Shown here: piece after piece, positions 1-49,444 of the stretch
Numbering within the stretch: position 1 is the stretch's first letter
Layout of the letters: every line of letters begins with the position of its first letter
Assembly (NCBI GenBank): GCA_031430855.1
Contig: JANPCG010000010.1
Span: 35,714 to 99,713 of the forward strand
Source: Candidatus Kaiserbacteria bacterium
GTDB lineage: Bacteria > Patescibacteriota > Minisyncoccia > Phycocordibacterales > UBA918
Direction of reading: 5' to 3'
Length of the DNA stretch: 64,000 nucleotides
The notes under the pieces: generated by a model
Told to the model about the DNA's origin: nothing
Seen by the model: only the letters and a program-made list of their open reading frames with translations
The model's database searches: none
Translations under genes and position numbers: made by a program

Positions 1-3000
1 GAACATACAACAGTTTACGCTCCAGAGTGGACGAGTATTTGAAACGACAGGCACCTTTACCCATGCCGCCAGTGGGACAGCTACTACCTGGACTGGTTCA
101 ACCTTGCGGCTATCTGGTAGTGATTCGGCCATTAATCTAAAGACTCATGGCGGAGATGTGTACGGTACTATTCAAACGAGTGGTGATACTGACGCGATTG
201 TATGGAATAGTAGTGCGACCAGTATTGTAAACGCGAGTACCTCGTCATTATATTCAGCTGATCATGCGGGGATTGATGGTGACCTTACTATTTACGGTGA
301 TTACGTACGAACGACAGGAACTGAGTTCTGGAGTTTAGCGACTGACTTTGATGGTGTGGCCCTGACTGGTTCAACCAGTCGTCAAGTTGATGTACGAATT
401 GCTACTGGTTCACGAGTCGGCTTTGTTTCTTCGTCGCTTAATCTCGTCGGCGGTAGTGGTGCGACAACTACAATTGACGCAGTATCTGGTGCGTATAGTC
501 TCAGTGCGACAAATACGACGATTACCGCGCAGGCTTTTAGTTTGGCAGGAACAGACACTCAAGGTCTCGTTTTGCAAGCGTCTACTTCCTTGGCTAGTTT
601 CCAAGACGGATTGTTTACTGTTATTCCTGGTCGGAGTGGTATCACTATCAGTAGTACAACCGTCGCACAAAATCCTTCGGCGCAGTACCAGCGGATTAGT
701 TTTGCGACGACCTCAGCTGGGGTTGGAACGAACGTTACCTTGGTTGGTACCACAAGTTCGTTTATCTGGTTCCGTACCGGTGGAGGCAATCTTTATGGTG
801 AAGCGTATGACGGGGGAGATGCAAATCCTGGATCAATTCGATGGGATGATAGTTCAAACTCGATTACGGTGTCCGGTGTCGTCTATTCAAACGATGGAAC
901 AACGATTCTGGGAGCACCGACGTGTAACGGAACCACGCCGAATGTACGGATTGTCGTAAATAATGGTACGTATACCGCTTCAACTACCTGTGCAGTCGGA
1001 ACCGGTGCCTACTCATTTGCGGGGGTAGCCTACGTTGGTGACCCAAAAATTACGGTCTATCTCGACACTAATGGTGGAGTGCGAGGAACTGCTATTACAA
1101 AAACTCCAACTGCAAACATTACGAATATGCATATTTATGCTGATCGTATTATTACTCGTCATCAAGACGTTGTGCCACTGACGATTTCTGACATGACTAC
1201 CTTTGACTTTGATGATGATACAGATATACGATTTATTGCGACCACAACTGGTTCGACTACGCTCACGGTGCTCCCGAACACTAGTCTGTTTGTGTTTGCC
1301 ACAACAACTTTCGCGCCAGGTGGAAATATTACACTCACCGGTAACGCGAGCTCGTCCGCAGTCGAAGGAACGCTTCAGTTAGCTAATGCGGCGACGTTTA
1401 CGGCAACCGGAACAGAAATGCACTCACTTTCAGGCCGGTTAGTGTTAGCTACAACTTCAGTCTTTACTGCGGCATCATCAACCTTTGTCTTTAACGCGAC
1501 CACTTCTGGCAAGAGTATTACGAGTCCAAATACCGTCACGTTTAATCAGCTCCAATTTACTGGAGCTGGTGGTGGTTGGAATATAACTGCGCCACTTATC
1601 GTGCAGGCAAATATGGATATTGCGACCGGAACTGTTACAGGAACAAATAACATCACGCTCACAGGTGGTTCACTCTCCGGTAATGGAACACTCTCGCTTG
1701 GTTCTGGCACCACAACCATTAACCAAACGAATACCCTTGGCGGTACGAGGGCTTGGACATTTGCAAACTTGGTCTTAGGTAATGGTTCGAGTGTAGGCAC
1801 GTCAACTCCTAATACGAGCGCTACTACGACCGTCAGTGGACGTCTTACTATTAGTAATGTTCACGTCCTCAAGGCTAACGCGACCTTGTGGGATCTCTCC
1901 GGTACGGGTACCGTCTTTACCGAAACCGGTACGCTCGTTGAAGACACAAGCACCTTTAGATACAGTGGAACTGCTTCAAATGTACTTTCAACTGGGTACT
2001 ATAATCTTGATCTTAATAGTGGAGCAGGGTCAGCTACGTATACCGCAGTTGGACTGGGTATCAGTGTGGCTAATAACCTCACTATTGGAGGTACTGCGAC
2101 AACAAACTTTAACCTCACCATCAACGACCCACTCTTAGTGGTTGGTAATGACATTTTGATTCGAAGTAACGGTACACTTACGGCCAGTGATATTGCGACG
2201 ACAACAGTGGCTCGTGATTGGATGAACACTGGTGCATTTATAAGTAACGGCGGTACAGTCACCTTTGTTGGTACCGGTTCTTCTACGATTATCGCCAGCT
2301 CATCATCCTTTGGTAATCTCACAATAAATGGTGCGGGTAGCTTTACGGTAGCTTCGAGCGCTACGACAACTGGTGCCTTCATGCTTACAAATCATGCCAA
2401 CTTTACTCTCTCAAGTGGTCGAACGCTCGCGATTGGTGGCAATTTCACTAACGGACTTGGAGGCGGAGCTACCACGTGGACTGGTAGTACACTGCATCTC
2501 TTTGGTGGCAACACGAAAGTAATTAATGCGTCTACGACCAGCGATGTGTACGAAACGCTTTCGGTCGCAGCTAGTACTAATGTTCGTATATGGAATAGCT
2601 CAGCTACAACGTACAATGCAACGGGCGGAATTTACTCACAAGACCATGCAGGTAGTAACGGAGCTCTAAATGTTTACGGTGCCTTCACTTCAAATACGCT
2701 GACTGATCACTGGAGCTACGCTACTGACTTTGATGGTACGTCACTTGCCGGGTCAGAACGAGCGGTAACGGTCTCGTTTGCAAGTAGTAGTAGTGCAACG
2801 TATACCGGAGGTAATCTCTTTGTAGTTGGAACCACTACAGCCTCAACCACTGTTCAAAATCAAGGTGTTGGTCGCTACACGGTGACCATTGGTACGGGAG
2901 CGACAACGCAATGGGATATGGTGCGAGTTCGTAATACTAATACCACCGGAATTGTCTTCACTGGTACTCCTCTCGTAACTGATTTCTCTCGTACTGACCA

Positions 3001-6000
3001 CATCATTGATATCAATAGTGGTACCGCTTTTACTGTCGGCGGTACCGTCATTGATGTGAATCAAGCCAAGAACTTTACGAACAATGTTTTTGCGACTTCC
3101 TCTGGTATCACGAGTGCAAGTAACGTGACAGCCACTGGTACAACCGTTAGTTCGTGGCGCTTTACAAATCATACTGGTGCGCTCTCAGGCGAGTTATATG
3201 ACTCCGACCCGGCTGGTGATCCAGGGTACTTGGTATGGGACAACTCAGCCGCACTCATCACAGTTTCCGGTAATGTGTACAGTGACGAAGGGTCAACAGT
3301 CTCAACTGTCTGTGATGGCACGACCCAAAATGTTGTCCTTCGAGTAGCTGGACTGACGACCTACACTTCATCATGTAATGCCGGAACCGGAGCGTATAGT
3401 ATGAGTGGTGTGGCATTTAGTCCTTCTGACACGCTCACGGTGTATATAGACGGGAATACTCGCAAGGCGGCGACAGTCAGTTCTGATCCAATTTCTTCAA
3501 TTGGTAACATGAACCTCTATGAAAACCGGGTCATTGTGCGGCACGAAAATACCAGCCCACTTTCGATTGCTGATATGGCAGTGTGGGATAGTTCTGACGA
3601 TGCAGACATTCAATTTACGGCGATTGATGCGGGGACAGATACACTCACGCTTCCGGCTGATCAAAAGTTATTAATTTGGAATGGTAAAACATTTGAACCG
3701 AATGGAAATGTGACCGTCTCGGGTGGTGGTGCAGGTGGTGCTCAAGATGGAACTCTCGAAGCGCAAACGAACGCGGTCTTTAGAGCGCAGGGAACAGAAC
3801 AACATACGGTCGGTGGCAGCTTTATCTTTGGTACCGGAGCAACTTTTGTGGCAGCGCAGTCATCAACGACTTTCACCACGACCGGTTCGGGACGCACTGT
3901 TGATGTCAATGCGGCGAGTTTCGGTAATGTTGCCTTTACTGGTTCAGGTAGCTGGACGGTTACTGATGCAACCTTTGCGACGAGTCGTTCATTTACGCAA
4001 ACGAATGGTACTGTAACCTTTGGTGCAGGCACGACAACAGTTGGTCGTTCGTTTAACGCGACTGCTGGTACGTTTATAATGTCTGGTTCGGCTCTTGTGT
4101 TTGTGAGTACGACAACCGGTAATGTTGTGCGCTTTGATGATTCATCGGTACCTGGTCTCCAATTCGTTGGTACTGGTGGAGCGTGGGCTATGACTGATAC
4201 TGATGCGACAACTACCGGTTCGTTTGCGGTGGCATCTGGTACGGTGACCTTGCCGTCTGGAAACCTAACCGTCAGTCGAAACTTCACTAACACTGGTGGA
4301 ACGATCACTAACAATACGTCGGATATTATAATGGTGGCTTCGTCCACAGCGACACTTACCGCCAGTGGCTCGAGTCTGTTTGCAGTGCGCTTCACCGGCG
4401 TTGGTCCGTTTACTATTGGTGATGTGAATTTAACTCTCTTGGATTCTCTGACGCTCGCAACGGGAACGCTTACTCTCGCGACGGGGACGTTATCTGTCGG
4501 TGGTGATTTCCTTATCGCTTCAGGAACGCTTAACAATGCAAGTGGTACGGTACTCTTTAATGCAACTACCGTAGGCAAGACTATAACGTTTGGAGCAAAT
4601 GCACTCTATAACGTGGTGTTTGGAAGTGGTACGGGTGGTTGGAATTTTACCGGGAACGCAACCACTACCAATAATTTCTCGATTACCGGAGCCACTTCGT
4701 TTACAAAAGAAGCCGACACAACCCTTAATGTTGGTGGGGTGTTTACAAACTTGGTTGGTGGTGCTAACACGACGTGGGCAACTTCAACCCTTCGTCTCTA
4801 CGGTACTGCCGGGTATACCCTTAATACCAAAACGGTTGGGGGTGATGTATACGGCACGCTATTTATTGGTACAAACCTACCAGTCAGAAGTTGGAATAGT
4901 AGTGCTGCTACTACGACCGTTAGTGCTGGTTCATCATGGTATTCACAAGATCATGCGGTGGTCGATGGTAATCTCAATATTTACGGTTCACTTACGATTG
5001 CGACGACTACAGAATACTGGAATTATTCGACGGACTTTGATGGTGCTGCCCTTACGGGAGTTAATCAGCGAGCGGTTGCGGTTCGGTTTGCTCAAAATGC
5101 TACCACTACCGTCGCCTCTGGCGCTCTCCAAATTGTCGGAACTACAACGGCATCGACTACGATTGGTAATCAGGCGACTGGTACCTATGCCCTCAGTATT
5201 CATGGTGGAACGTTTACCGCCCAGTACTACGCGTTCTCAAATCTTAATGCGTCTGGTTTGCAATTTGTTAATACTCCAACTATCTCAAATCTTTCAAATG
5301 GCTACTTTAATCTCGCCGTAAACAGTGGGTCATTAATTTCACTAGCAACCACCTCTCTTGATGCAAATGCCTCAAAGATTTGGACAGCGGTTGCGTTTAA
5401 TGCCACTTCCGGTCTCTCTGGTACTAACGTCAACCTCTCAGGATCATCGAGTAACGCGTGGCGTTTCAGTGGCAGTTACGGAAACCTGGGTGGTGAGGAC
5501 TACGATAACGATGGCGCCACTGCCTGTGGATCAATTCGGTGGGATAATAGTGGATGTTTACTGACACAACAAAGTTATATCCGCTGGCGTAATGATGATG
5601 GTGGGGAAGGTGCGCCACAAAGTGAGTGGTTTAATACCTCCTTTGATTACCGTAAGCGAGTTCGGGTAGTTAATAGTGATGCAAGTAACTATGCGAGTAC
5701 GGCGGTTAAGATAAATGTGACCTACGATAGTAATATGCAGTCCGACTTTGATGATTTACGCTTCACTGCAAATGATGGTACTACTACCATTCCCTATTGG
5801 ATTGAACGCTATACCGCGAGTACTGACGCGGTGGTGTGGGTCCGCGTTCCAAATATTGCCGCGAGCAGTATTGCCACTGTCTTTATGTACTATGGAAGTA
5901 GTACCGCGCCAAACAGTAGCTCGGGGTCTACTACGTTTGCTGCCTTTGATGATTTTGAAGACAATAACATTACCGAGTACGCTGGCGATACCGGTATATT

Positions 6001-7840
6001 CCAAACGGATACCACTCCGGTGTATGGTGGCACCTACGCGCTTGAAGCGTTAAATAAATCGGCTCGCGCGACTGACGGTATTTTCCGCACTGCACTCACG
6101 GTCAGTCAGGGTCAAATCATCCGCTGGATGCAATACATTGATACCGTTGCCGGCTCGGGAGATGAAGCGTGTACCCTCTTTGGGGTCCAGTCACCAGGTA
6201 CGAACAATAATAATTACGCTGTATGTCTTGAACAGTTTGGTACTGATCGGATTGCCATCTCTGAGAATGTTTCAGATAACGATGTGTCTGGTACTGTACT
6301 TTCGTCAACGACAGTAAGCTACACCACCGGGTGGTATGAAGTAGAGGTTGATTGGCAGACTAATAATACGATGAAAGCGTATCTCCGTACTGCAGCAGGC
6401 GCCTTGGTTGCATCAACTACTGCGACTGATGCCTCGTACACCACTGGTGGTATGGGCTTTACCTTCTGGTTCCAAAATGGTTCATGGGATAGCTTTACGG
6501 CGCGTGCGCGAGCTATGATCGCGCCAACAGTGTACTTTGGTGACGAGCAAACAGATGGTGGAGCAACCTGGGCAGCCGCTCAAAATGCACTCGGGTCGGG
6601 AATTCCTGGTACGGTACGTCGTCTCCGGGTCGGAATCGAAAATTCAGGTCTTAATGTAACTGGACAAACCTATCGACTTGAATACGCAGGGAAAGGTGTA
6701 GCGCCAAGTTGTGAGGCGGTGAGTTCTGGTAGTTATACCGCTGTGCCAAATCAAGCGAGTTGTGGTAGTTCTCCCGTCTGTATGCAAACCTCTACTAATA
6801 TTACTGATGGTGATGCTACAACCGACTTGCTTTCGAGTACTACTGGTGCGTTTACGGCTGGTCGAATTGTTGAGAGTCCATCTAATATCACGAGCGCTCT
6901 TAATATTAACCAAAACTTCTACACAGAGCTTGAGTATGCGATTACTCCAACAGTTAATGCCTCCGACGCCTATTGTTTCCGGGTCACTAATGGAGGGACA
7001 CCGCTCGATTTCTACAATAAAATAGCTGAGCTTGGTCTGCAGTTCGATCCAGTATTTGGACCAGTGAGTGTCAATAATGGTAATCCGATTATTTTGAATC
7101 CTGGTACGACAACGGCTATCTTTGCAACAGGTACCGTAACAGATTTTAATGGGCCGGGTGATTTGCAGCGAGCAACGTCAACCCTCTATCGAAGTAGTGC
7201 TGGTCCAAGTTGTGTTCGCAATAACAATAATTGTTATATTAGTAACACAGCGAGTTCTACTTGTACGTTCACCAACTGTTCTGGTAATACTTGTACGTTG
7301 TCATGTCGAGCAGATATTTTCTTCCACGCTGATGCGACTGACGTAGTGCCGTATGAAGGGGAAGAGTGGACGGCGTTCCTGGAGGTGTCTGATACTGGTG
7401 GAGGCTATGATTTTGCATCACCAGTCACAGGGGTAGAACTGCAGACATTACGTTATATGACGGTAGATACTGGCATTAACTACGGATCCCTTGCCGTAAC
7501 TGAAAACACTGGCGCATATAACCCAACTACTACAATATCTAATCTCGGAAATGTTGCATTCAACCTAGAAGTGTCAGGCAGTAACCTGACTGATGGCGGA
7601 TCTTCAGTCATCCCAGCTAATAAACAGAAATTTGCCAGTACTACTTTTATCTATAACTCATGTATCAGTTGTTCACTCGTTTCAACCAGTACCCCTGTAG
7701 TATTGGCGCTTGGTATCACTAAACCGACGGTTGCTACTCCACCAGTCTCAGCACCTATCTACTGGGGAATTGAAGTACCGCTAGGAGTAGCAAGTGTACC
7801 GCATCAGGGTATCAACTACTTCACGCCAGTTTCGCCGTAG
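1..7840 (+). CDS. Giant Thr/Ser/Gly-rich cell-surface protein (5'-partial, >2578 aa). It has beta-helix/adhesin-like repeats, then a DUF2341-like segment and a jelly-roll-like C-terminal region.
   Basis: The reading frame is open from nt 2 in the same frame as the 104 TTG, and the upstream residues already show the repeat motif (TGSTLRLSG), so the gene starts before the window. Three super-repeats each contain WNSSAT...SQDHAG..G.L.[IV]YG...T.[EH][FY]W[SN][LY][AS]TDFDG..L[TA]G. At nt ~5579-5910 the protein reads IRWRNDDGGE...YRKRVRVVNSD...DLRFTANDGTTTIPYWIERYTASTDAVVWVRVPNIAASSIATVFMYYGSS, which matches the DUF2341 consensus I remember (DirF..dG..L.yeIE.wd...a.vWVkvp.l....iymYYGN). Confidence 0.8.
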   Translation, partial: NIQQFTLQSGRVFETTGTFTHAASGTATTWTGSTLRLSGSDSAINLKTHGGDVYGTIQTSGDTDAIVWNSSATSIVNASTSSLYSADHAGIDGDLTIYGDYVRTTGTEFWSLATDFDGVALTGSTSRQVDVRIATGSRVGFVSSSLNLVGGSGATTTIDAVSGAYSLSATNTTITAQAFSLAGTDTQGLVLQASTSLASFQDGLFTVIPGRSGITISSTTVAQNPSAQYQRISFATTSAGVGTNVTLVGTTSSFIWFRTGGGNLYGEAYDGGDANPGSIRWDDSSNSITVSGVVYSNDGTTILGAPTCNGTTPNVRIVVNNGTYTASTTCAVGTGAYSFAGVAYVGDPKITVYLDTNGGVRGTAITKTPTANITNMHIYADRIITRHQDVVPLTISDMTTFDFDDDTDIRFIATTTGSTTLTVLPNTSLFVFATTTFAPGGNITLTGNASSSAVEGTLQLANAATFTATGTEMHSLSGRLVLATTSVFTAASSTFVFNATTSGKSITSPNTVTFNQLQFTGAGGGWNITAPLIVQANMDIATGTVTGTNNITLTGGSLSGNGTLSLGSGTTTINQTNTLGGTRAWTFANLVLGNGSSVGTSTPNTSATTTVSGRLTISNVHVLKANATLWDLSGTGTVFTETGTLVEDTSTFRYSGTASNVLSTGYYNLDLNSGAGSATYTAVGLGISVANNLTIGGTATTNFNLTINDPLLVVGNDILIRSNGTLTASDIATTTVARDWMNTGAFISNGGTVTFVGTGSSTIIASSSSFGNLTINGAGSFTVASSATTTGAFMLTNHANFTLSSGRTLAIGGNFTNGLGGGATTWTGSTLHLFGGNTKVINASTTSDVYETLSVAASTNVRIWNSSATTYNATGGIYSQDHAGSNGALNVYGAFTSNTLTDHWSYATDFDGTSLAGSERAVTVSFASSSSATYTGGNLFVVGTTTASTTVQNQGVGRYTVTIGTGATTQWDMVRVRNTNTTGIVFTGTPLVTDFSRTDHIIDINSGTAFTVGGTVIDVNQAKNFTNNVFATSSGITSASNVTATGTTVSSWRFTNHTGALSGELYDSDPAGDPGYLVWDNSAALITVSGNVYSDEGSTVSTVCDGTTQNVVLRVAGLTTYTSSCNAGTGAYSMSGVAFSPSDTLTVYIDGNTRKAATVSSDPISSIGNMNLYENRVIVRHENTSPLSIADMAVWDSSDDADIQFTAIDAGTDTLTLPADQKLLIWNGKTFEPNGNVTVSGGGAGGAQDGTLEAQTNAVFRAQGTEQHTVGGSFIFGTGATFVAAQSSTTFTTTGSGRTVDVNAASFGNVAFTGSGSWTVTDATFATSRSFTQTNGTVTFGAGTTTVGRSFNATAGTFIMSGSALVFVSTTTGNVVRFDDSSVPGLQFVGTGGAWAMTDTDATTTGSFAVASGTVTLPSGNLTVSRNFTNTGGTITNNTSDIIMVASSTATLTASGSSLFAVRFTGVGPFTIGDVNLTLLDSLTLATGTLTLATGTLSVGGDFLIASGTLNNASGTVLFNATTVGKTITFGANALYNVVFGSGTGGWNFTGNATTTNNFSITGATSFTKEADTTLNVGGVFTNLVGGANTTWATSTLRLYGTAGYTLNTKTVGGDVYGTLFIGTNLPVRSWNSSAATTTVSAGSSWYSQDHAVVDGNLNIYGSLTIATTTEYWNYSTDFDGAALTGVNQRAVAVRFAQNATTTVASGALQIVGTTTASTTIGNQATGTYALSIHGGTFTAQYYAFSNLNASGLQFVNTPTISNLSNGYFNLAVNSGSLISLATTSLDANASKIWTAVAFNATSGLSGTNVNLSGSSSNAWRFSGSYGNLGGEDYDNDGATACGSIRWDNSGCLLTQQSYIRWRNDDGGEGAPQSEWFNTSFDYRKRVRVVNSDASNYASTAVKINVTYDSNMQSDFDDLRFTANDGTTTIPYWIERYTASTDAVVWVRVPNIAASSIATVFMYYGSSTAPNSSSGSTTFAAFDDFEDNNITEYAGDTGIFQTDTTPVYGGTYALEALNKSARATDGIFRTALTVSQGQIIRWMQYIDTVAGSGDEACTLFGVQSPGTNNNNYAVCLEQFGTDRIAISENVSDNDVSGTVLSSTTVSYTTGWYEVEVDWQTNNTMKAYLRTAAGALVASTTATDASYTTGGMGFTFWFQNGSWDSFTARARAMIAPTVYFGDEQTDGGATWAAAQNALGSGIPGTVRRLRVGIENSGLNVTGQTYRLEYAGKGVAPSCEAVSSGSYTAVPNQASCGSSPVCMQTSTNITDGDATTDLLSSTTGAFTAGRIVESPSNITSALNINQNFYTELEYAITPTVNASDAYCFRVTNGGTPLDFYNKIAELGLQFDPVFGPVSVNNGNPIILNPGTTTAIFATGTVTDFNGPGDLQRATSTLYRSSAGPSCVRNNNNCYISNTASSTCTFTNCSGNTCTLSCRADIFFHADATDVVPYEGEEWTAFLEVSDTGGGYDFASPVTGVELQTLRYMTVDTGINYGSLAVTENTGAYNPTTTISNLGNVAFNLEVSGSNLTDGGSSVIPANKQKFASTTFIYNSCISCSLVSTSTPVVLALGITKPTVATPPVSAPIYWGIEVPLGVASVPHQGINYFTPVSP
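104..5570 (+). repeat. Three diverged copies of a ~2.3-2.4 kb (~795 aa) super-repeat inside the giant gene.
   Basis: The anchor motif WNSSAT occurs at nt ~206, ~2590 and ~4885 (spacings 2384 and 2295 nt). Each copy is followed by SQDHAG, Y/WxxATDFDG and RxVxVxFA blocks. The similarity is at protein level, not near-identical DNA. Confidence 0.6.
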
Positions 7841-7848
7841 GTAATGAT

Positions 7849-9324
7849 ATGATTACACCAATGGTACAACGATGGCTTGTTTTAGGTGGCATTTTGCTTG
7901 CAATGCCTTTTGGTGTGATTGCTCAAACTAACGATTTGGTGGCACCTGAAATCACTAATGTAAAAGTAGCGAGCTCTACCGCTACGAGCATTACCGTAAC
8001 GTGGGTGACAGATGAAAAAGCTGATTCATCAGTTAACTATAGTTTACAACCCGACCTCGGCGTTGTTCGTAAACCACTCGCTGATCGAACCAATCACTCG
8101 ATTACAATTGATAATCTTGAAGCGGGGAAAACCTATTATTTCAGGGTAATTTCTGCAGACGTCGATGGTAATCAGGGTATTTCAGCTGACTATAAGATTG
8201 AGAGTCCAGAGTCATCGTCCAAAACAACAGAATCAACCACGAAAAATACCGTTCAGGTAGAATCACAAACGACCCAAGAAATCGTTGAGCAAATTAATCA
8301 AATTACTAACCCGCAACAATTGCAGGAAATCCTTAATGAAACCATTAAGGCAATTAAAGGAATTACCGAAGACCTCACCATTGTTGGTCCTCCTACCGTT
8401 GAGCCAGAGACAACCTTTGCTGTCGTGAAGTGGATCACTGACCGGCCGGCAAGTGGTGAGGTAGTTTTCTCACCTACAAGTGGGTTTAATGGTTCAAATT
8501 TTGCGTTCTCGCAGTCATCAACCGGAGATCGGACTACTGATCATGAAATTCGTTTAATCGGCCTTGAGCCTTTTACTGAATATAGTTTCCAGGTTCGTTC
8601 AACTGATGAGTATGGTATTACCGGAGAAAGTCGTAATTACACGTTTCGTACCAAAGCGTCTTTACCTGATATTCGTAACTTGCGTATCGTAAAGGTTGAA
8701 GAAAATGCAGCTACGCTTGCGTGGGATACAACCGTACCAGCAAAAGCCTTGATTGAATATCAGGATTTGACCACCGGGGTACAGAATTCAGTCGGTCGAC
8801 CGACCTTGGCGACCACACACCAGATGCGCTTGGCTGACTTGACCTTGGGAACTCGCTACGTAGCCTTCGTGATAGCAGAAAATTCTGGTGGTGACCGTGT
8901 TCGTAGTCAACCGATTCAGTTTATTACCGTGCGTGATATCGCTCCACCAATCATTACCAATGTAACGAACGAATCAACTATTTTTCCCGGTGGAGAATCT
9001 CGAATTCAAACGATTGTTGAATGGAATACGGACGAAGCTGCATCATGTTTGATGACCTATCGAGAAGGAGTTGCCGGGGGAGTTGATCCGGTTACGATTG
9101 AACAAGAGAATGTGCAGTATTCAACCAGTCACGTAGAAGTAATTGTTGATTTCGCGCCAGCGACAGTGTATCAGTTCTGGCTTAACTGTACGGATGAAGC
9201 GAAAAATACCATTCAGTCTGAAAACTTTGTCCTCTTTACCCCAATTCAAGAGAAAAATATTATTGATTTGATCTTGGAGAACTTTGAGTCGACTTTTGGC
9301 TGGGTTAAGAATATAACTAATTAA
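7849..9324 (+). CDS. Secreted protein with about four fibronectin type III-like domains.
   Basis: There is an N-terminal signal peptide (MITPMVQRWLVLGGILLAMPFGVIAQ). Repeated Fn3-like units follow (ITVTWVTDEKADSSVNY...GKTYYFRVISADVDGNQG; ATLAWDTTVPAKALIEYQ...GTRYVAFVIAENSGG). The gene is 6 nt downstream of the giant gene's stop. Confidence 0.7.
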   Translation: MITPMVQRWLVLGGILLAMPFGVIAQTNDLVAPEITNVKVASSTATSITVTWVTDEKADSSVNYSLQPDLGVVRKPLADRTNHSITIDNLEAGKTYYFRVISADVDGNQGISADYKIESPESSSKTTESTTKNTVQVESQTTQEIVEQINQITNPQQLQEILNETIKAIKGITEDLTIVGPPTVEPETTFAVVKWITDRPASGEVVFSPTSGFNGSNFAFSQSSTGDRTTDHEIRLIGLEPFTEYSFQVRSTDEYGITGESRNYTFRTKASLPDIRNLRIVKVEENAATLAWDTTVPAKALIEYQDLTTGVQNSVGRPTLATTHQMRLADLTLGTRYVAFVIAENSGGDRVRSQPIQFITVRDIAPPIITNVTNESTIFPGGESRIQTIVEWNTDEAASCLMTYREGVAGGVDPVTIEQENVQYSTSHVEVIVDFAPATVYQFWLNCTDEAKNTIQSENFVLFTPIQEKNIIDLILENFESTFGWVKNITN

Positions 9325-9427
9325 AATTATTTATTTCTTAATCCGCCAAAAGGTTCCAGGACTTTCATTAGGGATAGAAAGTCGGAACAAAGTAAAATCA
9401 TACAACCTTACGGTTGTTGTTTTACTT

Positions 9428-9457
9428 TTCGGTTGGGTTAAGAACATCACCAACTAG
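9428..9457 (+). pseudogene. Ghost 3' end: a second copy of the last 9 codons plus stop of the upstream Fn3 gene (FGWVKNITN*), with synonymous changes.
   Basis: The gene ends ttt ggc tgg gtt aag aat ata act aat taa (9295-9324). About 104 nt downstream, ttc ggt tgg gtt aag aac atc acc aac tag encodes the identical 9 residues plus a stop, with 8 silent differences. The frame upstream has no Met and reaches an in-frame stop. Confidence 0.5.
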
Positions 9458-9839
9458 AGCCTAAAAACAGCGAACTTCTTTGTCAGGCTGCAGTAAAAAT
9501 TTTCTCACTGTACAAGGAGTACGGCTCATAAATTTTTCCTTGCCCTCCTCGAATTTCATCTGTTTTATAGACTCTAGTAAAAAAATCTTTCTCTATGGCG
9601 TTTTATCTTCCGTCGTATTTTTTCCCATTTTGCAGAAGCTATTCACTCATTAGAAATTTTTTTCTTTACCTTACAAAATTGCTCAAAGAGTCTTGCGAAG
9701 TGACTTTATGTCACTTCTCACCTCTCATTGCATCCAATTCTTAAAGTTTTTTAGAAATAAAATTTAATAAGACTAAAGATACATTTATTAACTGTGAGTT
9801 GTCTCGATATATATACAGTGAGCGTGTCATAATACATAA

Positions 9840-11162
9840 ATGGCAAAGCCGCTTATCACGTGTCGTGATCTTTCTATTATTTACAACAAAGGAAAGTCTA
9901 ACGAATTCCGTGCACTCCAAAATGTAAACACTGACATCTATGAAGGTGAGTATATTATTCTGTTCGGTGCGTCTGGCTCAGGGAAATCTACCCTGATGTA
10001 TTCAATTCAGGGCTCACTCCCACCGGGAGATGGGACGCTGCTTATTCGAGGTGATGATATTTACTCCTATCCGCCATCAGAGCGAGTTTATTTTCAACGG
10101 TACGTGATGGGTATTATCTTCCAGTCATTTAACCTGATTGGGTCGCTGTCAGTGCTCGACAATGTTGCTTTGCCACAAATTTTTTGTGATGTTGATAAAA
10201 CTACGCGCGATAGACGCGCCCAGTCACTTTTAGACCGCTTTGGGGTAGGTCATGTATCACACAAATTGCCCTCGATGCTCTCTGGAGGTCAGCAGCAACG
10301 TGTCTCGGTAGCTCGTTCGATGGTGAATGACCCAAAGATTTTGCTGGCGGACGAGCCGACGGGTAACCTTGACTCGGTTTCCACGCAGCAAGTAATGGAC
10401 AAAATTGATGAAATTAACACGTTTGATAGACGGACCATTATTATGGTGTCGCACAACGCTGCCCACTTAAGCTACGCCCACCGCGTGTATTACCTCAAAG
10501 ACGGCTTTGTCGTGCGTGAAGTGGTAAATCCACAACGAAAACAAATTAAACCAGTGCGAGAAGGGGAGACAATTGTAACCGAACTCGAACAATTAGCGCG
10601 GTTATTTCCCTACGATTCAGTTGAGACGCTTCGGGTCAAGAGTTTGGTGAATTATTTAACTCAGGATTACACCTTTAATCAACTAAATCGTTTAGAACGG
10701 GCTGTTGCTTACTTTATAAATGGAAAGATTGACCGTGACTCTTTTGTAAAAGCCCTGATTCTCCCGGCTGAACAGGGTGGAGTCGAAATGCCTGAGTTTA
10801 AAGCGAAGCAGATGGCCAAACAAAGTGAAATTTTAATCCATCAATCAGACGATATTCGTCGTTTCCGGGCCAAAAAAGACAATCCAGGAGTATTTTTTGA
10901 TCAACATAAACTTGCCGAGCGATTAAAAGATCATGTATTACATATATATCGAATAAAGATGAGTAAAGAAATGGATGATAATCTGACTGAATTAATTGCT
11001 GACCGTGTTACCGGAGTAATTGAGGAAAGTGAATTCAATGCCAAGTTAATGGTAGGAGTGCGACAACATGGGCTGGCACTATCAGAAAAGGAAGCCGACG
11101 AAGTAACTCGTTATTTTGAAAAATTAATTGCGCAAGGGGTGGATGTGAGTTACAAGAGCTAA
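9840..11162 (+). CDS. ABC transporter ATP-binding protein (MacB/LolD/FtsE-like) with a ~200-aa helical C-terminal extension.
   Basis: Walker A is GASGSGKST, Q-loop IFQSFNL, ABC signature LSGGQQQRVSVAR, Walker B ILLADEPTGNLD and H-loop MVSHN. The 440-aa length leaves a C-terminal half (aa 230-440) that I do not recognise. Confidence 0.85.
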   Translation: MAKPLITCRDLSIIYNKGKSNEFRALQNVNTDIYEGEYIILFGASGSGKSTLMYSIQGSLPPGDGTLLIRGDDIYSYPPSERVYFQRYVMGIIFQSFNLIGSLSVLDNVALPQIFCDVDKTTRDRRAQSLLDRFGVGHVSHKLPSMLSGGQQQRVSVARSMVNDPKILLADEPTGNLDSVSTQQVMDKIDEINTFDRRTIIMVSHNAAHLSYAHRVYYLKDGFVVREVVNPQRKQIKPVREGETIVTELEQLARLFPYDSVETLRVKSLVNYLTQDYTFNQLNRLERAVAYFINGKIDRDSFVKALILPAEQGGVEMPEFKAKQMAKQSEILIHQSDDIRRFRAKKDNPGVFFDQHKLAERLKDHVLHIYRIKMSKEMDDNLTELIADRVTGVIEESEFNAKLMVGVRQHGLALSEKEADEVTRYFEKLIAQGVDVSYKS

Positions 11163-11318
11163 AGAGAAGATGGAATATTGAATAGGGAAGAAAGAAAATA
11201 AAATAATCAAAAGTGAATAATGAGTCTTTTACTATTTTGTAAATGGTATTATTTAATTATGTAAATTGGAGGTATACACCCGAAAGTATTTTTGTGTGTG
11301 TCACCCTCAATATTAATT

Positions 11319-15515: not shown

Positions 15516-16637
15516 ATGCCTATGTATGAAAAGCTTACAGCACTCATACTGGGCATACTGATACTCGAGACATTTACGAGTACCAGAGTGTATGCAGTAG
15601 AAATCTTTACCGCTACGACGACGATTAACCTCAGTATTTGCGGAAATTCACTTGTTGATATTGGTGAACAATGTGACATTCCTGGCGAACTTGGGGTTTA
15701 CAGTACTACTATTGTTGGAAGACAGTGTTCTCCTGCGTGTCGTTTTGGTGCCTATTGTGGTGACGGTATTTTGCAAACGCAATTTTCTGAAGAATGTGAC
15801 GATGCCAATAATGATAGTGGCGACTTTTGTTCTGCTACCTGTACGATTGAACCGGCCGGGTCAGGAGGAGGAGGTTCCTCGGGAGGTGGTGGGTCACGCG
15901 GTGGAGGGACGCGAGATGTTGGAGGAACTCAAATTAGTATTACCGGTTTAGGCTATCCGAACCAGACGATTAACTTCTTACTCGATACTCGTTCAATTGG
16001 TTCAGTGCGAGCCAATACAGCGGGTCGCTTTGAATTTACTGCAGAAGCTTCACCCGGCACCGCCACCCTAGGAGTCTGGGCACAGGACAGTAGTGGTCGG
16101 AGATCTATTACCTTAAACAATACGTTTGATGTAACACAGGGGGCGGTAACAAATGTATCAGGTTTAATTTTACCTCCAACAATTTCTGTTCCAAGTCCTA
16201 ATATTATTCCCGGCAGTTCACTTGTCATCTCTGGACAAGCGATTCCGTCTGCAAAAGTTGATATCCACTTTAATAATAACGAAATTGTAGAATCAACGAA
16301 TAGTGCTGTTGATGGTCGATACACACTTACATTTAACACCACGCGACTGCGTAATGCTGAGTATGCAATTAAGGCCCGCTCAGTCACCGGAACGGCACCA
16401 CTTTTAACTCAGAGTGGATTTAGTAGTTTGCTCCAACTGTTTGTTGGTGTAGATGGTAAACCAACCACCTCATCAGATCTTAACCGTGACGGTAGTGTGA
16501 ATCTGATCGACTTTTCGATTTTAATTTTCTGGTGGCAAACTCCTGGTGGTGACTCTGAACCTCCGGCTGACATAAACAGTAATGGACGGGTTAGTCTGGA
16601 GGATTTCTCAATCCTACTCTTTAACTGGACCGGCTAG
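15516..16637 (+). CDS. Secreted protein with Cys-rich repeats, a poly-Gly linker, Ig-like region(s) and a C-terminal dockerin-like module.
   Basis: It has a signal peptide and repeats of CGDGILQ..EECDDANNDSGDFCSATC type. The linker is SGGGGSSGGGGSRGGG. The C-terminus (DLNRDGSVNLIDFSILIFWW ... DINSNGRVSLEDFSILLFNW) is a duplicated Ca-binding loop of the dockerin type (DxNxDGxVNxxD). Confidence 0.7.
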   Translation: MPMYEKLTALILGILILETFTSTRVYAVEIFTATTTINLSICGNSLVDIGEQCDIPGELGVYSTTIVGRQCSPACRFGAYCGDGILQTQFSEECDDANNDSGDFCSATCTIEPAGSGGGGSSGGGGSRGGGTRDVGGTQISITGLGYPNQTINFLLDTRSIGSVRANTAGRFEFTAEASPGTATLGVWAQDSSGRRSITLNNTFDVTQGAVTNVSGLILPPTISVPSPNIIPGSSLVISGQAIPSAKVDIHFNNNEIVESTNSAVDGRYTLTFNTTRLRNAEYAIKARSVTGTAPLLTQSGFSSLLQLFVGVDGKPTTSSDLNRDGSVNLIDFSILIFWWQTPGGDSEPPADINSNGRVSLEDFSILLFNWTG

Positions 16638-16657
16638 TATCTTGTTAATGTTTCTTC

Positions 16658-16677
16658 ATTTAAACTGGACAGGCTAG
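16658..16677 (+). repeat. Ghost copy of the last 6 codons plus stop of the upstream dockerin gene.
   Basis: The gene ends tttaactggaccggctag (FNWTG*) at 16620-16637. About 21 nt after that stop, tttaaactggacaggctag reads in frame as LNWTG*. Confidence 0.45.
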
Positions 16678-17080
16678 AACTCTTGAAAATAAGTTATGAC
16701 TTTGTTGTGCTACACTCGAATATTTTTATCGTATATTAAATACGCCTCAATTATTCTCACTAGCACGCCTCGTCAAAACTCATTTTGAAGCGTTCTAGAA
16801 AAAATTTGTGTATAAGTTTAGCGAAAAAAAATTCCGACACGTTACAATGATTTTGTACTGATGTTGGAGGTATCAATTTATCGATACTGCAAGTGCCACG
16901 TAAGTGGTATTTGGGCGCTTCAGCCAAGCGTTACAGCATGAGTATGTTTACATTCTTCTATAGGTAGTCGGTGTGGAGACTGACTGCTGGTATTGGCACA
17001 TTTATGTACCAATAGCACGACAAATGACTCTTTGTACAGCATTTGGAAGTGCAGTGTAAGCTAATACAACGTAGAGCCAT

Positions 17081-18232
17081 ATGAGTAGAACGAATACCAC
17101 GTTCGGACTACTCCAAGCCGCAGCTTTGACATTAGGACTGGCGATCATTTTATGGTCACTCGGACTGCCGTCGTTCCGCTTTGCGGAAGCTGCAAATGTC
17201 ACGTCGTTAAGCGACACACTCTCTGATTCCGCTCCTTCGGTTGGAGCAAATCATACAATCTCTTTTGTTACGCCAACTGGTGTAGCAAATGGACAAACCG
17301 TCGTTGTGGACTTTTCTAACGGCCCGTTTGTAGTAGGTACTGTCGATTTTACAGATATTGATGTCATTGATGGCACCACTAATCTCTCGGTCGCAACCAA
17401 CTGCTCTGGCGCACAAGAAACCAGTGCTGCGTTTTCAGGAACAACTCTCACGGTTACATTTTGTAGCGGTGATGGAGCAGAAATCCTTCCTAATGGTACA
17501 ACTACCATCTTGATTGGAACAAATGCCACCTTTGGAGTTGCGGGAAATGCACAGCTCACAAATCCGACTGTTGGATCGTATGAAATCAATCTAACTGCTG
17601 GCGCAAGTGATTCGGGTTCTACTCGAGTTGCAATTATTGCACCAGTTATCGTTACTGCAGCCGTTGATACCAGCTTTACGTTTACCGTAGCTGGACTTCC
17701 TGGCGCAGGAACAGTAAATCAAGAGCCAATCACCGGTAGTTCGACGGCAACAACAATTCCATTTGGAACGCTGGTTGCAAACTCTGCTTCAACGGCAGCG
17801 CAGCAATTAACCGTTCAAACCAATGCTAGTTATGGCTATGCTGTAACAGTACAGGTGGATCAGCAGTTAACGTCATCGACCGGAGCAGACATTGACGGAT
17901 TTGCTAATGGAACGTATACCTCAAATCCGATTGCATGGTCACAGCCATCAGAAAGTATTAGTAACGAAGATACCTGGGGACACTGGGGTCTTACGTCAGA
18001 CGATGCAACTTTTGGTCTCAGTGATCCATTTGACGCAGCAGGAACAGGCCAATTATTCGTATCTGCTTCAACCACACCGGTAGAAGTAATGCGTCATAAT
18101 GGTCCAGCTGATGGGGTAACGCAAAACATTGGTCTCGCCAAAGTAGGCTACACCGTAGAGATTTCTCCGCTACAAGAAGCAGGGAATGACTACACCGCTA
18201 CGCTGACATACGTAGCAACCCCAGTGTTCTAA
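17081..18232 (+). CDS. Secreted Thr/Ser/Gly-rich surface protein.
   Basis: The signal peptide is FGLLQAAALTLGLAIILWSLGLPSFRFAEA. The rest is low-complexity and beta-rich with no catalytic motif. A 440-bp AT-rich non-coding region lies upstream. Confidence 0.65.
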   Translation: MSRTNTTFGLLQAAALTLGLAIILWSLGLPSFRFAEAANVTSLSDTLSDSAPSVGANHTISFVTPTGVANGQTVVVDFSNGPFVVGTVDFTDIDVIDGTTNLSVATNCSGAQETSAAFSGTTLTVTFCSGDGAEILPNGTTTILIGTNATFGVAGNAQLTNPTVGSYEINLTAGASDSGSTRVAIIAPVIVTAAVDTSFTFTVAGLPGAGTVNQEPITGSSTATTIPFGTLVANSASTAAQQLTVQTNASYGYAVTVQVDQQLTSSTGADIDGFANGTYTSNPIAWSQPSESISNEDTWGHWGLTSDDATFGLSDPFDAAGTGQLFVSASTTPVEVMRHNGPADGVTQNIGLAKVGYTVEISPLQEAGNDYTATLTYVATPVF

Positions 18233-36973: not shown

Positions 36974-37510
36974 ATGTTTAACAAATTCGAACTTATTGGG
37001 ATTGGTGCGAGTATTATGTCTATGGCGTTTGCTTTGTATTTAGTTAACCTTGAAACGTCGTCTCTCGCTCAGGTTACAGGTAGTAGTAATGCGGCCCAAA
37101 GTGCGCTGATTGTCGTTGGAAGCGAAGACGATAATAAGAATGCACTTCGAGACGCTCTCTTAGAAGGAACGACTGCAAATGGTACCGTTAATAAGCTCAT
37201 TATCGATGATGTGGTAATTGGTGCTGGAGACGAAGTGGTAATCGGAAATACTGTTATCGTTCACTATATTGGCACTCTTCAAAATGGTCAGGAATTTGAT
37301 AACTCTAATAAACGAGGTACTCCATTTGAATTTACGGTTGGTGCAGGAAAGGTTATTCCAGGCTGGGAAGAAGGTATTATCGGTATGAAAGTAGGTGGAA
37401 AACGTATCATTGTCATTCCTGCTGAAAAAGGCTACGGAAAAGAAGGATTCGGTCCGATTCCTGGTGGGGCTACTCTCGTCTTTTCTCTCGAACTCTTGGA
37501 GATAAAGTAG
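36974..37510 (+). CDS. FKBP-type peptidyl-prolyl cis-trans isomerase.
   Basis: It has an N-terminal TM anchor. The FKBP core reads GDEVVIGNTVIVHYIGTLQNGQEFDNSNKRGTPFEFTVGAGKVIPGWEEGIIGMKVGGKRIIVIPAEKGYG...GGATLVFSLELLEI. Confidence 0.85.
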   Translation: MFNKFELIGIGASIMSMAFALYLVNLETSSLAQVTGSSNAAQSALIVVGSEDDNKNALRDALLEGTTANGTVNKLIIDDVVIGAGDEVVIGNTVIVHYIGTLQNGQEFDNSNKRGTPFEFTVGAGKVIPGWEEGIIGMKVGGKRIIVIPAEKGYGKEGFGPIPGGATLVFSLELLEIK

Positions 37511-37676
37511 GTAAAATTACTGCATCTACTTTGTCGCACTTCAAGTAATATTTTCATCGTACAAGTAAGTACGTTTCAAATATTATTTATCATGCTCCGC
37601 GTATCTACAGCAATTTAGCAAACTTTGTTCATATTTTCTTAAAGCATTTTTCAATTCACCTTTGCCTATTTAATTT

Positions 37677-39643: not shown

Positions 39644-41785
39644 ATGCAATTCGAAATTTCGACAGATAAGACCCCCGCGGGTGATCAGCCAAAGGCCATT
39701 GAATCCCTTGTTCATGGTGTGCGTGCTGGTGTAAAACACCAGACCTTATTAGGGGTAACAGGATCTGGGAAAACCTTTACTGGGGCTAATGTCATACAGC
39801 AGATTCAAAAGCCAACCCTTGTGATTGCGCATAATAAGACCCTGGCGGCCCAGTTAGCCCAGGAATACCGAGATTTCTTTCCCAATAATGCCGTGCATTA
39901 CTTTGTCTCGTACTACGACTACTACCAGCCAGAAGCATACATGCCAACCTCAGACACTTTTATTGAAAAAGAGGCACAAATTAATGAAGAGATTGATCGG
40001 CTTCGACATGCATCAACCCAGGCCCTGCTCTCACGGCAAGACGTTATTATTGTAGCGTCGGTATCGTGTATTTATGGTTTAGGTTCGCCAAAAGAGTATT
40101 TAAAACGACACTTACAAATTGAAAAAGGTTTTGAGACGACTCGTATGGAGTTTGTGCGGACCCTAATCGACATGTATTTTGAAAGAACGAACGCTGATTT
40201 AAATCCTGGTCAATTTAGAGCTGTCGGTAATATGGTTGAGGTAATGCCAACCAATGAACGAAGTATTTATCGAATCGCTTTTACGGGAAATGTGGTAACC
40301 GCAATTACTAAAATCGATGGTATCACCCGCTCAATTATAGAAGAACCAGAGACTTTTTTCCTATTCCCGGCGAAACACTTTGTATCACCTGAAGACGAAC
40401 GGAAGGTAGCCTATGAAGACATTAAGCTCGAGCTTGAAATGCAGCTTGAAAAATTCAAAAAGGAGGGGAAGCTCCTCGAAGCTGAGCGTATTAAGCGTCG
40501 GACGCAACACGACCTCGCTCTTATCCGCGAAGTTGGCTATTGTAACGGGATTGAGAATTACTCCCGCCACTTTGATCGACGTAAATCAGGTGAAGCACCA
40601 TTTACATTGCTGTCATACTTTCCCCACACTCCGGAGGGGAAGCCCGACTTCCTGACTATCATTGATGAATCACATGTAACAATTCCTCAACTCAATGGTA
40701 TGTATGCTGGCGATCGCTCGCGTAAAGATACATTGGTCGAATTCGGCTTTCGTTTACCGTCGGCGGTTGATAACAGGCCGTTAAAATTCGCAGAATTTGA
40801 TGAACGTATCGGGCTGCGGATATATACATCAGCCACACCAGGACATTATGAATTTGAGCATTCTTGTCCTCAGGCGACGCCAAAGACCACTGGTGCAGGG
40901 GAAACGAAAATGCCTCACGCTGATTGGGTAAAGGGTTTTGATTTAAAGGTCTGTCTAGAGTCGGGAGCTGTGGTTGAGCAAATCATTCGTCCGACTGGTC
41001 TTGTAGATCCTGAAATTGATCTCCGAAAAGTGACTCAAGTTGGTGAGTATCCTGGACAAATTAAAGACTTTATTGCTGAAGCAGAACGGGTAATCGCAGG
41101 TGGAGGACGCGTCCTTACAACTACATTAACCAAGAAAATGGCTGAGGATTTAGCTGAATTTCTCACGGAGAGAAAAATTAATACCAAATATATTCATAGC
41201 GATATAAAAACAATTGAACGCATTGAAATTTTGACTGATTTCAGACGAGGCAAATTTGATTGTTTAGTTGGCGTTAACCTGCTTCGTGAAGGACTCGATC
41301 TCCCAGAAGTAGAACTGGTTGCAATCCTTGATGCTGATAAGGCTGGTTTTTTGCGCAGCGAGACAGCGCTTATTCAAACTATTGGTCGCGCCGCCAGAAA
41401 TGTCTTAGGACGAGTAATACTGTATGCGGACGAAATAACTGACGCTCTCACTTATGCAATTAATGAAACAAATCGAAGGCGTGCTATTCAAGTTTTGCAT
41501 AATACAAAACATGGAATAACTCCAACAACGATTGCTAAAGAAATTAAATCAATTGCCGATCAAATGCGGACTGAACACGACGAAACAGTTGAGACGTTGC
41601 TGCGGGTCGATATTGAACTCTTTAAACGAAATCCAATAAAAGTCCTCAAGGAAAAACGACAACAAATGGAAGAGGCCGTAGCAATTCTCGATTTTGAAAC
41701 AGCAGCTATTATCCGTGATGAAATTGCCTACCTAGAGACAGCGGGGAGTGGCAAAAAAACACCAAAGAAGAAAGGAATCATCTAG
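39644..41785 (+). CDS. uvrB: Excinuclease ABC subunit B.
   Basis: Walker A is LLGVTGSGKTF, with helicase motifs and a UvrB beta-hairpin region. The C-terminal UVR domain reads EAVAILDFETAAIIRDEIAYLE. Length is 713 aa. Confidence 0.9.
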   Translation: MQFEISTDKTPAGDQPKAIESLVHGVRAGVKHQTLLGVTGSGKTFTGANVIQQIQKPTLVIAHNKTLAAQLAQEYRDFFPNNAVHYFVSYYDYYQPEAYMPTSDTFIEKEAQINEEIDRLRHASTQALLSRQDVIIVASVSCIYGLGSPKEYLKRHLQIEKGFETTRMEFVRTLIDMYFERTNADLNPGQFRAVGNMVEVMPTNERSIYRIAFTGNVVTAITKIDGITRSIIEEPETFFLFPAKHFVSPEDERKVAYEDIKLELEMQLEKFKKEGKLLEAERIKRRTQHDLALIREVGYCNGIENYSRHFDRRKSGEAPFTLLSYFPHTPEGKPDFLTIIDESHVTIPQLNGMYAGDRSRKDTLVEFGFRLPSAVDNRPLKFAEFDERIGLRIYTSATPGHYEFEHSCPQATPKTTGAGETKMPHADWVKGFDLKVCLESGAVVEQIIRPTGLVDPEIDLRKVTQVGEYPGQIKDFIAEAERVIAGGGRVLTTTLTKKMAEDLAEFLTERKINTKYIHSDIKTIERIEILTDFRRGKFDCLVGVNLLREGLDLPEVELVAILDADKAGFLRSETALIQTIGRAARNVLGRVILYADEITDALTYAINETNRRRAIQVLHNTKHGITPTTIAKEIKSIADQMRTEHDETVETLLRVDIELFKRNPIKVLKEKRQQMEEAVAILDFETAAIIRDEIAYLETAGSGKKTPKKKGII

Positions 41786-41834
41786 TCCCAACCGGTTGTG
41801 TCAATAGCGAGAATTATTTTGTATACTGAAAAGT

Positions 41835-42215: not shown

Positions 42216-42270
42216 AAAGAATGTGTTGAAAATTAAAGGTACCACTTCACTATCGTAGTATACTAAACAG

Positions 42271-44904: not shown

Positions 44905-44920
44905 AGCGTTCACACTTCCC

Positions 44921-46261: not shown

Positions 46262-46347
46262 CCCATACAGTATCAATTTTGAATCTTTCTTAAAACCAGG
46301 TATAATCTCCACATGATACCGCTACCGCCAGGCAGCGGCGTATATGT

Positions 46348-49381: not shown

Positions 49382-49395
49382 AGCACCACAACATA

Positions 49396-49426: not shown

Positions 49427-49444
49427 TGGTACAGTATTTTCGCG

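Follow-up and report, generated by a model that had tools for sequence, protein, structure and literature searches.

Intergenic repeats of the Correia/NEMIS, RUP, ERIC and REP/BIME types span about 100-150 nucleotides (nt), form long hairpins behind genes and can act as terminators or as mRNA stabilisers. They carry conserved terminal inverted repeats and go along with fixed TA or short target duplications. Homology-facilitated illegitimate recombination and microhomology-mediated template switching were described for naturally transformable bacteria and for replication errors. The genomes of Patescibacteria (candidate phyla radiation, CPR) are small and usually described as poor in mobile DNA, and nothing specific was found in the literature on small repeat elements in CPR bacteria. 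The Yersinia element YPAL/RU-2 is a palindromic intergenic repeat that is co-transcribed with the upstream gene, shows target duplications of 3-26 bp next to dyad symmetry and occurs at filled and empty sites (PMC2229807, summary by Delihas, 2008). Compared by description and not by sequence, it is the nearest described analogue of the locus analyzed here. This locus lies in a stretch of 64,000 nt from a Candidatus Kaiserbacteria bacterium (contig JANPCG010000010.1, positions 35,714 to 99,713), called the window throughout the paper. A surface-protein gene with a dockerin domain is followed there, behind its stop codon, by a near-copy of its own last codons. The term "ghost" was used for this second copy. 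The ghosts of this region are tied to two families of structured intergenic repeats, B and C, a connection missed by an earlier note on this DNA, which had been made from the sequence alone.

The second copy of the dockerin gene end

At the end of the dockerin gene the following features were distinguished.

15516-16637, + strand: surface-protein gene with Ig-like domain (Pfam Big_6), DUF4215 cysteine-rich repeat and C-terminal Dockerin_1 domain (open reading frame (ORF), 373 amino acids (aa))
16623-16637, + strand: real gene tail X, AACTGGACCGGCTAG, left copy of a direct repeat
16638-16663, + strand: spacer, putative remnant of element C, last 14 nt GTTTCTTCATTTAA (16650-16663)
16663-16677, + strand: ghost tail X', AACTGGACAGGCTAG, right copy of the direct repeat
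16674-16800, + strand: copy of element B at the dockerin ghost, closing helix 16674-16700 / 16772-16798

The dockerin protein ends with ..DFSILLFNWTG*, a C-terminus that is nearly invariant across the class. The last 18 nt of its gene (TTTAACTGGACCGGCTAG, 16620-16637) return as TTAAACTGGACAGGCTAG at 16660-16677, with 16/18 identical positions in the ungapped comparison, or with 17/18 and one extra A when the copy is read from 16659. The earlier note had described both this near-copy and the gap of 21 nt between stop and copy correctly. It had also taken the copy to read in frame as LNWTG*. This peptide appears only in the copy's own frame, which is +1 relative to the dockerin gene because the two stop codons lie 40 nt apart. 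The homologous core comprises 15 nt (16623-16637 versus 16663-16677) with 14/15 identical positions, and the sole difference, ACA in the ghost for ACC in the tail, is of the synonymous type. The TTTAA ahead of the ghost is part of the end of a repeat element and lies outside this core; what the earlier note had called an inserted A is the meeting point of the T-tract end of that element and the ghost core. The ghost (16663-16677) is untranslated. In its +1 frame, no stop interrupts the 33 codons that lead from within the dockerin gene up to the stop of the ghost.

For the whole 64 kb, 0.03 matches were expected by chance at 3 mismatches or fewer. Among the 48 window genes, a copy of the gene's own tail within 300 nt downstream was found twice, behind the dockerin gene and behind an FN3-domain gene (7849-9324). 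A scan for such tail repeats was run on 1025 genes in 120 related loci. Using a cutoff of 6 mismatches in 24 positions, 7 tails matched their own downstream region, compared to 0.4 matches in a control that paired tails with the downstream regions of other genes. A chance origin of the ghost was ruled out by shuffles and by this pairing with foreign downstream regions. The ghost was present in ten contigs from different samples and assemblers, which were identical across the ghost region. An assembly artefact was rejected because of this identity of 10 independent contigs. The ghost is therefore a non-random, genuine feature. A relic of the tail of a paralogue was considered as well and rejected, as no other gene end coding for ..WTG* was found in the window or in relatives, except for the orthologues.

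Elements C and B at the ghosts

Full-length C measures 100-160 nt and is composed of four parts: some 30 nt of variable sequence at the 5' end, a conserved hairpin (GTTCYAGGA-stem-loop-stem-TTCRGAAC) with covarying inner stem, the linker TAAATTCATAATAG, and a small GC hairpin with a loop of 3-4 nt, followed by a T-tract that ends with ..TTCATTTA. Copies of C agree in the internal hairpin and in the T-tract at the 3' end but not in their 5' 30 nt, and conserved terminal inverted repeats are lacking. Using a covariance model (R2), 59 matches to C were obtained in 1.3 Mb of related loci, on both strands. A terminator scan flagged the second hairpin, in the C copy behind the window FN3 gene (9402-9417 plus TGTTTTACTT) and in L074 (single related loci are given by such L numbers). 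The scan of 16400-17200, which covers the window dockerin spacer, yielded no terminator-like site. Judged by its sequence, C looks like an intrinsic terminator module.

In the window dockerin spacer (16638-16663) the hairpins of C are absent, and 22-26 nt including the T-tract end are left. The end of the spacer, GTTTCTTCATTTAA, agrees in all 14 nt with the U-tract at the 3' terminus of C in L116 and in 13/14 positions with that of L074. From this agreement we infer that the spacer is the remnant of a C element with its interior since deleted.

Dockerin ghosts were found in 11 lineages, namely the window, L065, L069, L074, L088, L089, L092, L123, L116, L073 and L023. The real dockerin tail and the ghost are separated by a full-length C in L065, L069, L074, L088, L089, L092 and L123, and by a longer C-like element in L023, L073 and L116. 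The same order of tail, C and ghost was observed behind the FN3 gene in the window, L013, L021, L118 and L067; the FN3 gene of L067 possesses a different tail (..NIAG*) and a 13-nt repeat with 13/13 matching positions. The ghost starts directly after the T-tract of C. Repeat lengths of 13, 15-16 and 30-33 nt were observed, and the junctions differ between L116, L074 and the other lineages, therefore independent events have to be assumed. The recurring process suspected in the earlier note was thus supported, with dockerin-tail ghosts in 11 lineages, FN3-tail ghosts in at least five, at least three independent junctions, and conspecific contigs that differ by the presence or absence of one unit. 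Ghosts carry lineage-specific variants of the tail (AGT in L089, ACA in L118). Decayed ghosts were found in L044, L063, L023 and L073. Between lineages, homology always stops at the stop codon of the ghost. In L044, the nearest relative (11116-11285), an 84-nt tandem duplication starts 7 nt inside the dockerin tail, with CGGTTAG followed by GTACTATAAACCG occurring twice, and constitutes a third, weaker tail ghost.

The 86 dockerin gene ends were sorted by the element detected behind them.

Forward C: 11 ends, 7 with ghost
Reverse C: 6 ends, 0 with ghost
B: 10 ends, 0 with ghost
No element detected by the models: 59 ends, 4 with ghost

The four ghosts of the last group are those of the window and of three loci with degenerate or longer C-like elements. 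Ghosts are clearly enriched at ends with forward C (7/11 versus 4/75 at all other gene ends, P = 2e-5).

Element B, of about 125 nt, is a long irregular hairpin with predicted folds of -37.9 kcal/mol (z = -6.4) for 16674-16800 and of -34.3 kcal/mol (z = -3.8). The consensus of 8 copies from 4 species contains 21 base pairs, 11 of them with compensatory changes. The covariance model of B identified 38 distinct copies, 3 in the window and 35 in related loci. In 31 of the 38 the start of B lies -13 to +6 nt from the stop of a long ORF on the same strand, and 5 further copies start at the stop codon of a ghost. At the real dockerin stop B starts in 10 relatives, including L012, L013, L021, L055 and L066. 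The core of B is conserved; its outer helix varies from copy to copy, yet stays complementary and includes the stop of the upstream gene (TAG..CTA or TAA..TTA). For the copy at 16674-16800 the closing helix comprises 27 nt, is 85% complementary and opens with the C-TAG of the ghost. A T-tract is lacking in B. B looks like a 3' structure beginning in the stop codon. As it normally begins at real stops, the window ghost occupies the position expected for a gene end. Both elements are probably terminators or RNA structures of transcript 3' ends. Rfam 15 holds no family for B or C and gave nothing credible at E up to 10 in 9200-9900 or 16500-17200.

The B copy at the ghost stop, the C end in the spacer and the order of tail, C and ghost in other lineages therefore point to a displaced or duplicated gene end. 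With moderate confidence, we favor the interpretation that the last 13-33 nt of the gene form a direct repeat around C, that the ghost is the second of its two copies, located downstream, and that the repeat arose by addition of a unit of tail plus C.

The companion case at 9428, which the earlier note had put beside the dockerin ghost, is real, with 9295-9324 recurring at 9428-9457. The features around it and the third B copy of the window are the following.

7849-9324, + strand: FN3-domain surface-protein gene, last 30 nt 9295-9324 (FGWVKNITN*) as left repeat copy
9325-9427, + strand: full-length C element of the FN3 type, with anti-tail, hairpin H1, terminator-like hairpin and T-tract
9428-9457, + strand: ghost of the FN3 tail (FGWVKNITN*), 7 differences from the real tail, all of the synonymous type
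9453-9579, + strand: copy of element B at the FN3 ghost stop codon (covariance model, fold)
37502-37629, + strand: third window copy of B, at the stop of an FKBP-type isomerase gene (36974-37510; covariance model)

According to the covariance model, the FN3 spacer 9325-9427 is a full member of the C family. It contains an inverted copy of the gene tail (~9326-9354), H1 (9353-9388) and the terminator-like hairpin (9402-9417) followed by the T-tract. For the 27 nt directly behind the stop, two pairing partners are available, the real FN3 tail (duplex z between -4 and -7) and the 5' half of the ghost, whose 3' half finds no partner in this anti-tail. Tail and anti-tail covary at three positions. 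At 9292-9354, with the stop codon at the centre, the 30 nt that end the gene and the 27 nt that follow the stop make up an almost perfect palindrome; compensatory changes in it were seen in L001 (ATA>ATT with TAT>AAT) and L118 (ACT>ACA with AGT>TGT).

The codons of the FN3 ghost (9428-9457) are those of the real tail of the relative L047. In L047 the FN3 tail aacatcaccaac and its stop are directly followed by B, with the stop being TAA there and TAG in the window ghost. This arrangement is the ghost-plus-B of the window in functional form. L011 combines an FN3 tail of the new type and the first 72 nt of C with a GC-rich terminator, and no ghost is present. In the strain-level relative L001 (3817-4346, compared to window 9250-9860) the stop of the FN3 ghost is TAT instead of TAG, and a three-way alignment revealed a gap of ~78 nt, in which the 3' half of B and ~50 nt further are absent. 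Ghost stop and 3' half of B are therefore dispensable in L001.

Proposed gain and loss of the unit and rival explanations

Three conspecific loci with nearly identical flanks, L063, L064 and L065, differ by exactly one 128-nt unit of tail plus C. L065 shows the layout gene..CTCTT, TAATTGGACTGGGTAG, C1, TAATTGGACTGGTTAG, C2, and L063 and L064 show gene..CTCTT, TAATTGGACTGGTTAG, C2. The real tail of the short allele (GGT TAG; L063/L064) is the ghost of the long allele.

For the favored origin the following course of events is proposed. A unit of gene tail plus C would be joined ahead of the existing gene end, at a T/A-rich microhomology (dockerin, ..TTCATTTAA with CTC TTT AAY; FN3, ..TTTTACTTTT with ACT TTT GG). 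Template switching or unequal exchange with a sister copy in the genome might provide the unit; another source might be a related strain, whose DNA would find its anchor in the homologous gene sequence. The event would be tolerated because the protein stays unchanged, its conserved C-terminus being rebuilt. The old gene end would persist as ghost, joined to whatever followed the original stop, and recombination between the two tail copies could delete the unit again and leave the gene intact. In the window lineage the interior of C would have been deleted later, with B following the ghost. Most differences between ghost and tail would then come from allelic replacement of the real gene end with the right crossover inside C, and the ghosts would be young or renewed. 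The ghost itself is probably a by-product without function of its own. Of the three origins offered in the earlier note, two are viable ways to add the unit, a slipped duplication or the replacement of a cassette whose end-point lies within the 3' end; the third, a selected RNA element, is treated below.

Several observations weigh against this course of events. For the blocks of C plus ghost, identity reaches 96-100% between L065 and L069, and 92-97% when the window, L013 and L021 are compared, at 65-90% identity of the neighbouring coding DNA; such conservation above the coding flanks could reflect selection. Dockerin ghosts and tails differ at degenerate codon positions in 18/20 cases (P = 2e-7 for uniform decay, P = 2e-4 if half of the changes fell in the selected copy), FN3 ghosts and tails in all cases. 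This bias is not predicted by simple neutral decay; it would require that another allele replaced the real tail, that the ghost was renewed repeatedly, or that a further constraint acts. The difference between L063 and L065 fits a deletion between tail copies and an insertion of the unit alike. The two C copies around the L074 ghost are very different, therefore plain tandem duplication is not the sole route. No enzyme was identified for any step of the mechanism. Finally, no relative of the window lineage is closer than 82% identity of the dockerin protein, and therefore neither the stage with intact C nor the stage before insertion was seen for this lineage.

Going one step further, and here only tentatively since we regard it as rather doubtful, the ghost might be a built-in homology arm that lets a non-coding terminator cassette move between species without a transposase, with precise excision possible. 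Recombination would use the gene on the left and, on the right, the ghost against the tail of the recipient. The DNA further downstream is unrelated between lineages, therefore an element located there would not normally be passed on by homologous recombination. A homology arm would explain the restriction of ghost variation to degenerate positions, the 92-100% identity of C plus ghost versus 65-90% in the flanks, and the end of homology at the ghost stop. Tail, anti-tail and ghost of the FN3 version might, on top of this, act together as a translation-sensing RNA switch.

Among the rival explanations a selected cis-element survives best, although we consider it unlikely. The ghost would either be part of an RNA switch, in which the anti-tail pairs with the untranslated tail or the ghost, or a second factor-binding site. 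By way of such a switch, termination, or the folding of the element downstream, would depend on whether the gene end is being translated. This idea is consistent with the pairing of the inverted tail copy behind the FN3 gene with tail or ghost 5' half, with the three covarying tail/anti-tail positions, and with the L118 ghost, which shares the lineage-specific ACA with tail and complement. The coding-like variation of the untranslated ghosts, the conservation of C plus ghost beyond the coding flanks and the position of the ghost's stop codon within the B helix point in the same direction. However, dockerin ghosts have no consistent complementary partner (duplex z mostly -1 to +2), and the window segment of tail, spacer and ghost folds no better than shuffles (z = +0.6); for the dockerin ghost the selected RNA element of the earlier note consequently did not stand. 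Moreover, 75 of the 86 dockerin gene ends do without a ghost, ghosts have decayed in the four lineages named above, conspecifics lack the unit, the FN3 ghost stop is gone in L001 together with the 3' half of B, and the anti-tail leaves the 3' half of the FN3 ghost unpaired. For the FN3 version, with its palindrome at the stop codon and the three covarying positions, a functional role at the RNA level may exist.

C is present in many copies (59 matches in 1.3 Mb), lies in either orientation behind several genes and has sites that are filled in some relatives and empty in others, all of which would also suit a miniature inverted-repeat transposable element (MITE), moved by a transposase made elsewhere in the genome, with the tail copy as target-site duplication. 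YPAL/RU-2 with its variable target duplications of 3-26 bp gives a precedent (PMC2229807). A MITE is nevertheless improbable here. Duplications accompany forward C only (7/11 versus 0/6 for reverse C) and are not independent of orientation, their length of 13-33 nt is not fixed, their end lies always exactly at the stop codon, and C lacks conserved terminal inverted repeats. A search for transposases, integrases and reverse transcriptases gave none, either among the window ORFs of at least 150 aa or within the larger inserts that relatives carry at these sites.

About as improbable is a plain local tandem duplication of 40 nt by replication slippage, comprising the tail and the first 22 nt behind the stop, without any repeat element involved. 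The copies are adjacent with a period of 40 nt, a weak similarity exists behind the stops (TA-TCTTGTTAAT versus AACTCTTGAAAAT, 12/23 positions), and the 84-nt duplication of L044 demonstrates tandem duplication from 7 nt inside the same gene. Yet the parts behind the stops are only ~52% alike compared to 93% for the tail copies, the last 14 nt of the spacer are the exact 3' end of C, and the same ghost context (..TTCATTTA followed by AAYTGG..) occurs in ten other lineages with a full C in between. Recoding to an alternative C-terminus (frameshift, readthrough or bypass) or a template repeat of a diversity-generating retroelement can practically be dismissed. In its favor are the +1 frame open over 33 codons to the ghost stop, the regions between stop and ghost open in frame 0 in L013, L021 and L074, and the A on the ghost side at both differences of the 18-nt window ghost. 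Against it, the ghosts lie in frame 0, 1 or 2 depending on the lineage, mostly stop-blocked and without conserved start codon, and the resulting protein would end identically and so gain nothing; for the retroelement, the differences in other ghosts are not adenine-specific, the repeats are 13-33 nt instead of ~100 nt long, and no reverse transcriptase domain was found in the window.

Genomic context and comparison with known systems

The window is matched by contig JAYTDW010000021.1 of GCA_043735715.1 (Paceibacteria; Patescibacteria/CPR). A scan of species-representative genomes revealed the same gene order in 33 loci: giant protein, FN3 protein, ABC ATPase, FtsX permease, 624-aa protein, 319-aa protein, dockerin protein, 383-aa protein, 354-aa protein and cohesin protein. 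A metagenome scan added 80 loci. The protein ends ..DFSILLFNWTG* and ..FGWVKNI..* are near-invariant among the relatives. In distant relatives the gaps after the dockerin and FN3 genes measure 1-15 nt and 42-180 nt, respectively. The nearer relatives have gaps of 57 nt to 4 kb, filled with unrelated sequences. Gap sizes and unrelated content therefore characterize both sites as insertion hot spots. Other relatives carry unrelated inserted genes at the same two intergenic sites, for a histidine phosphatase, for proteins with an HD domain, and for a histidine kinase paired with a response regulator. The larger inserts at both sites of relatives yielded these genes only and no recombinase.

The region downstream of the dockerin stop (16638-17080) has a GC content of 37% versus 44% for the window. 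The AT-rich non-coding stretch of 440 nt of the earlier note is no empty spacer; the region consists of C remnant and ghost (40 nt), B (125 nt), a promoter-like motif and a leader of ~230 nt. The last two are located as follows.

16805-16848, + strand: conserved promoter-like block, TTTGTGTATAAGT (16805-16817), then TACAAT (16843-16848)
16849-17080, + strand: ~230-nt leader of the next gene (17081-18232, 383 aa), conserved in 18 related loci, with covarying hairpin

A simple sigma-70 scan did not flag the promoter-like block. The leader shares the blocks GGAGGTATC..GATACTGC (the covarying hairpin), TCAGCC, GTGGAGAC and TAATACAACGTAGAG with its relatives, gave no match to Rfam and is a candidate cis-regulatory RNA. 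The 383-aa gene behind it is restricted to the nearer clade; in distant relatives the dockerin gene adjoins the homologue of the 354-aa gene.

Further observations concern the remainder of the window. All genes up to 56 kb are encoded on the + strand. An ORF at 104-7840 runs off the start of the window; it encodes the C-terminal portion of a giant surface protein, which has internal repeats and a DUF2341 domain and reaches 6980 aa in the full contig. At 39644-50680 homologues of uvrB, uvrA and uvrC are grouped, broken up by an Ig-like surface protein and a histidine kinase. Two tRNA genes (52795-52867 and 53833-53905) were the sole Rfam matches of the window at gathering score.

This conserved surface-protein operon has two hot spots, occupied by structured repeats of two families, which are both anchored at stop codons and enclose the stop in the base of a helix. 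The ghosts of gene tails would mark entry and exit of the elements without harm to a highly conserved protein end, and the order of tail, element and tail may serve as a simple signature of recent insertions and excisions in metagenome-assembled genomes. For annotators it follows that short "pseudo-ends" behind genes are not pseudogenes. The candidate 3'-end RNA structures and the conserved 5' leader may bear on surface-protein expression in unculturable organisms. If the ghost indeed acted as homology arm, a new route for the horizontal spread of non-coding DNA would be at hand.

Comparing these elements with known systems, both similarities and clear differences became visible. With intrinsic (Rho-independent) terminators C has the GC-rich second hairpin, the loop of 3-4 nt and the subsequent T-tract in common; in contrast, the window dockerin spacer has kept the T-tract end without a hairpin, and B has no T-tract. 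Unlike the Correia/NEMIS, RUP, ERIC and REP/BIME repeats, C has no terminal inverted repeats, and B combines a conserved core with a variable outer helix that includes the stop. Integrative elements with att repeats in the 3' ends of tRNA, tmRNA and protein genes resemble the present case, as copies of the gene's 3' end flank the insert as a direct repeat, the gene is left intact, and recombination between the repeats restores the empty site. They differ by their kb size, compared to inserts of 22-160 nt without ORF or integrase here, where the repeat length is variable and two genes are used by related elements. The long homologous anchor (the gene) combined with a short T/A-rich microhomology, the variable end-points and the leftover resident sequence are reminiscent of homology-facilitated illegitimate recombination, which is a general mechanism and not an element family; for the present locus it is deduced from the junctions only (ACTTTT; TTTAA). 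YPAL/RU-2 comes closest, since C is also short, non-coding and multi-copy, with internal dyad symmetry, co-transcription with the upstream gene, insertion at or beside dyad symmetry, variable flanking duplications and filled and empty sites. In contrast to the Yersinia element, the duplication found here consists of the last codons of the upstream gene (13-33 nt) and always ends at the stop, one element orientation only is involved, C contains a terminator-like hairpin and no conserved terminal repeats, the helix of B is anchored on the stop codon, and the hosts are Patescibacteria/Paceibacteria.

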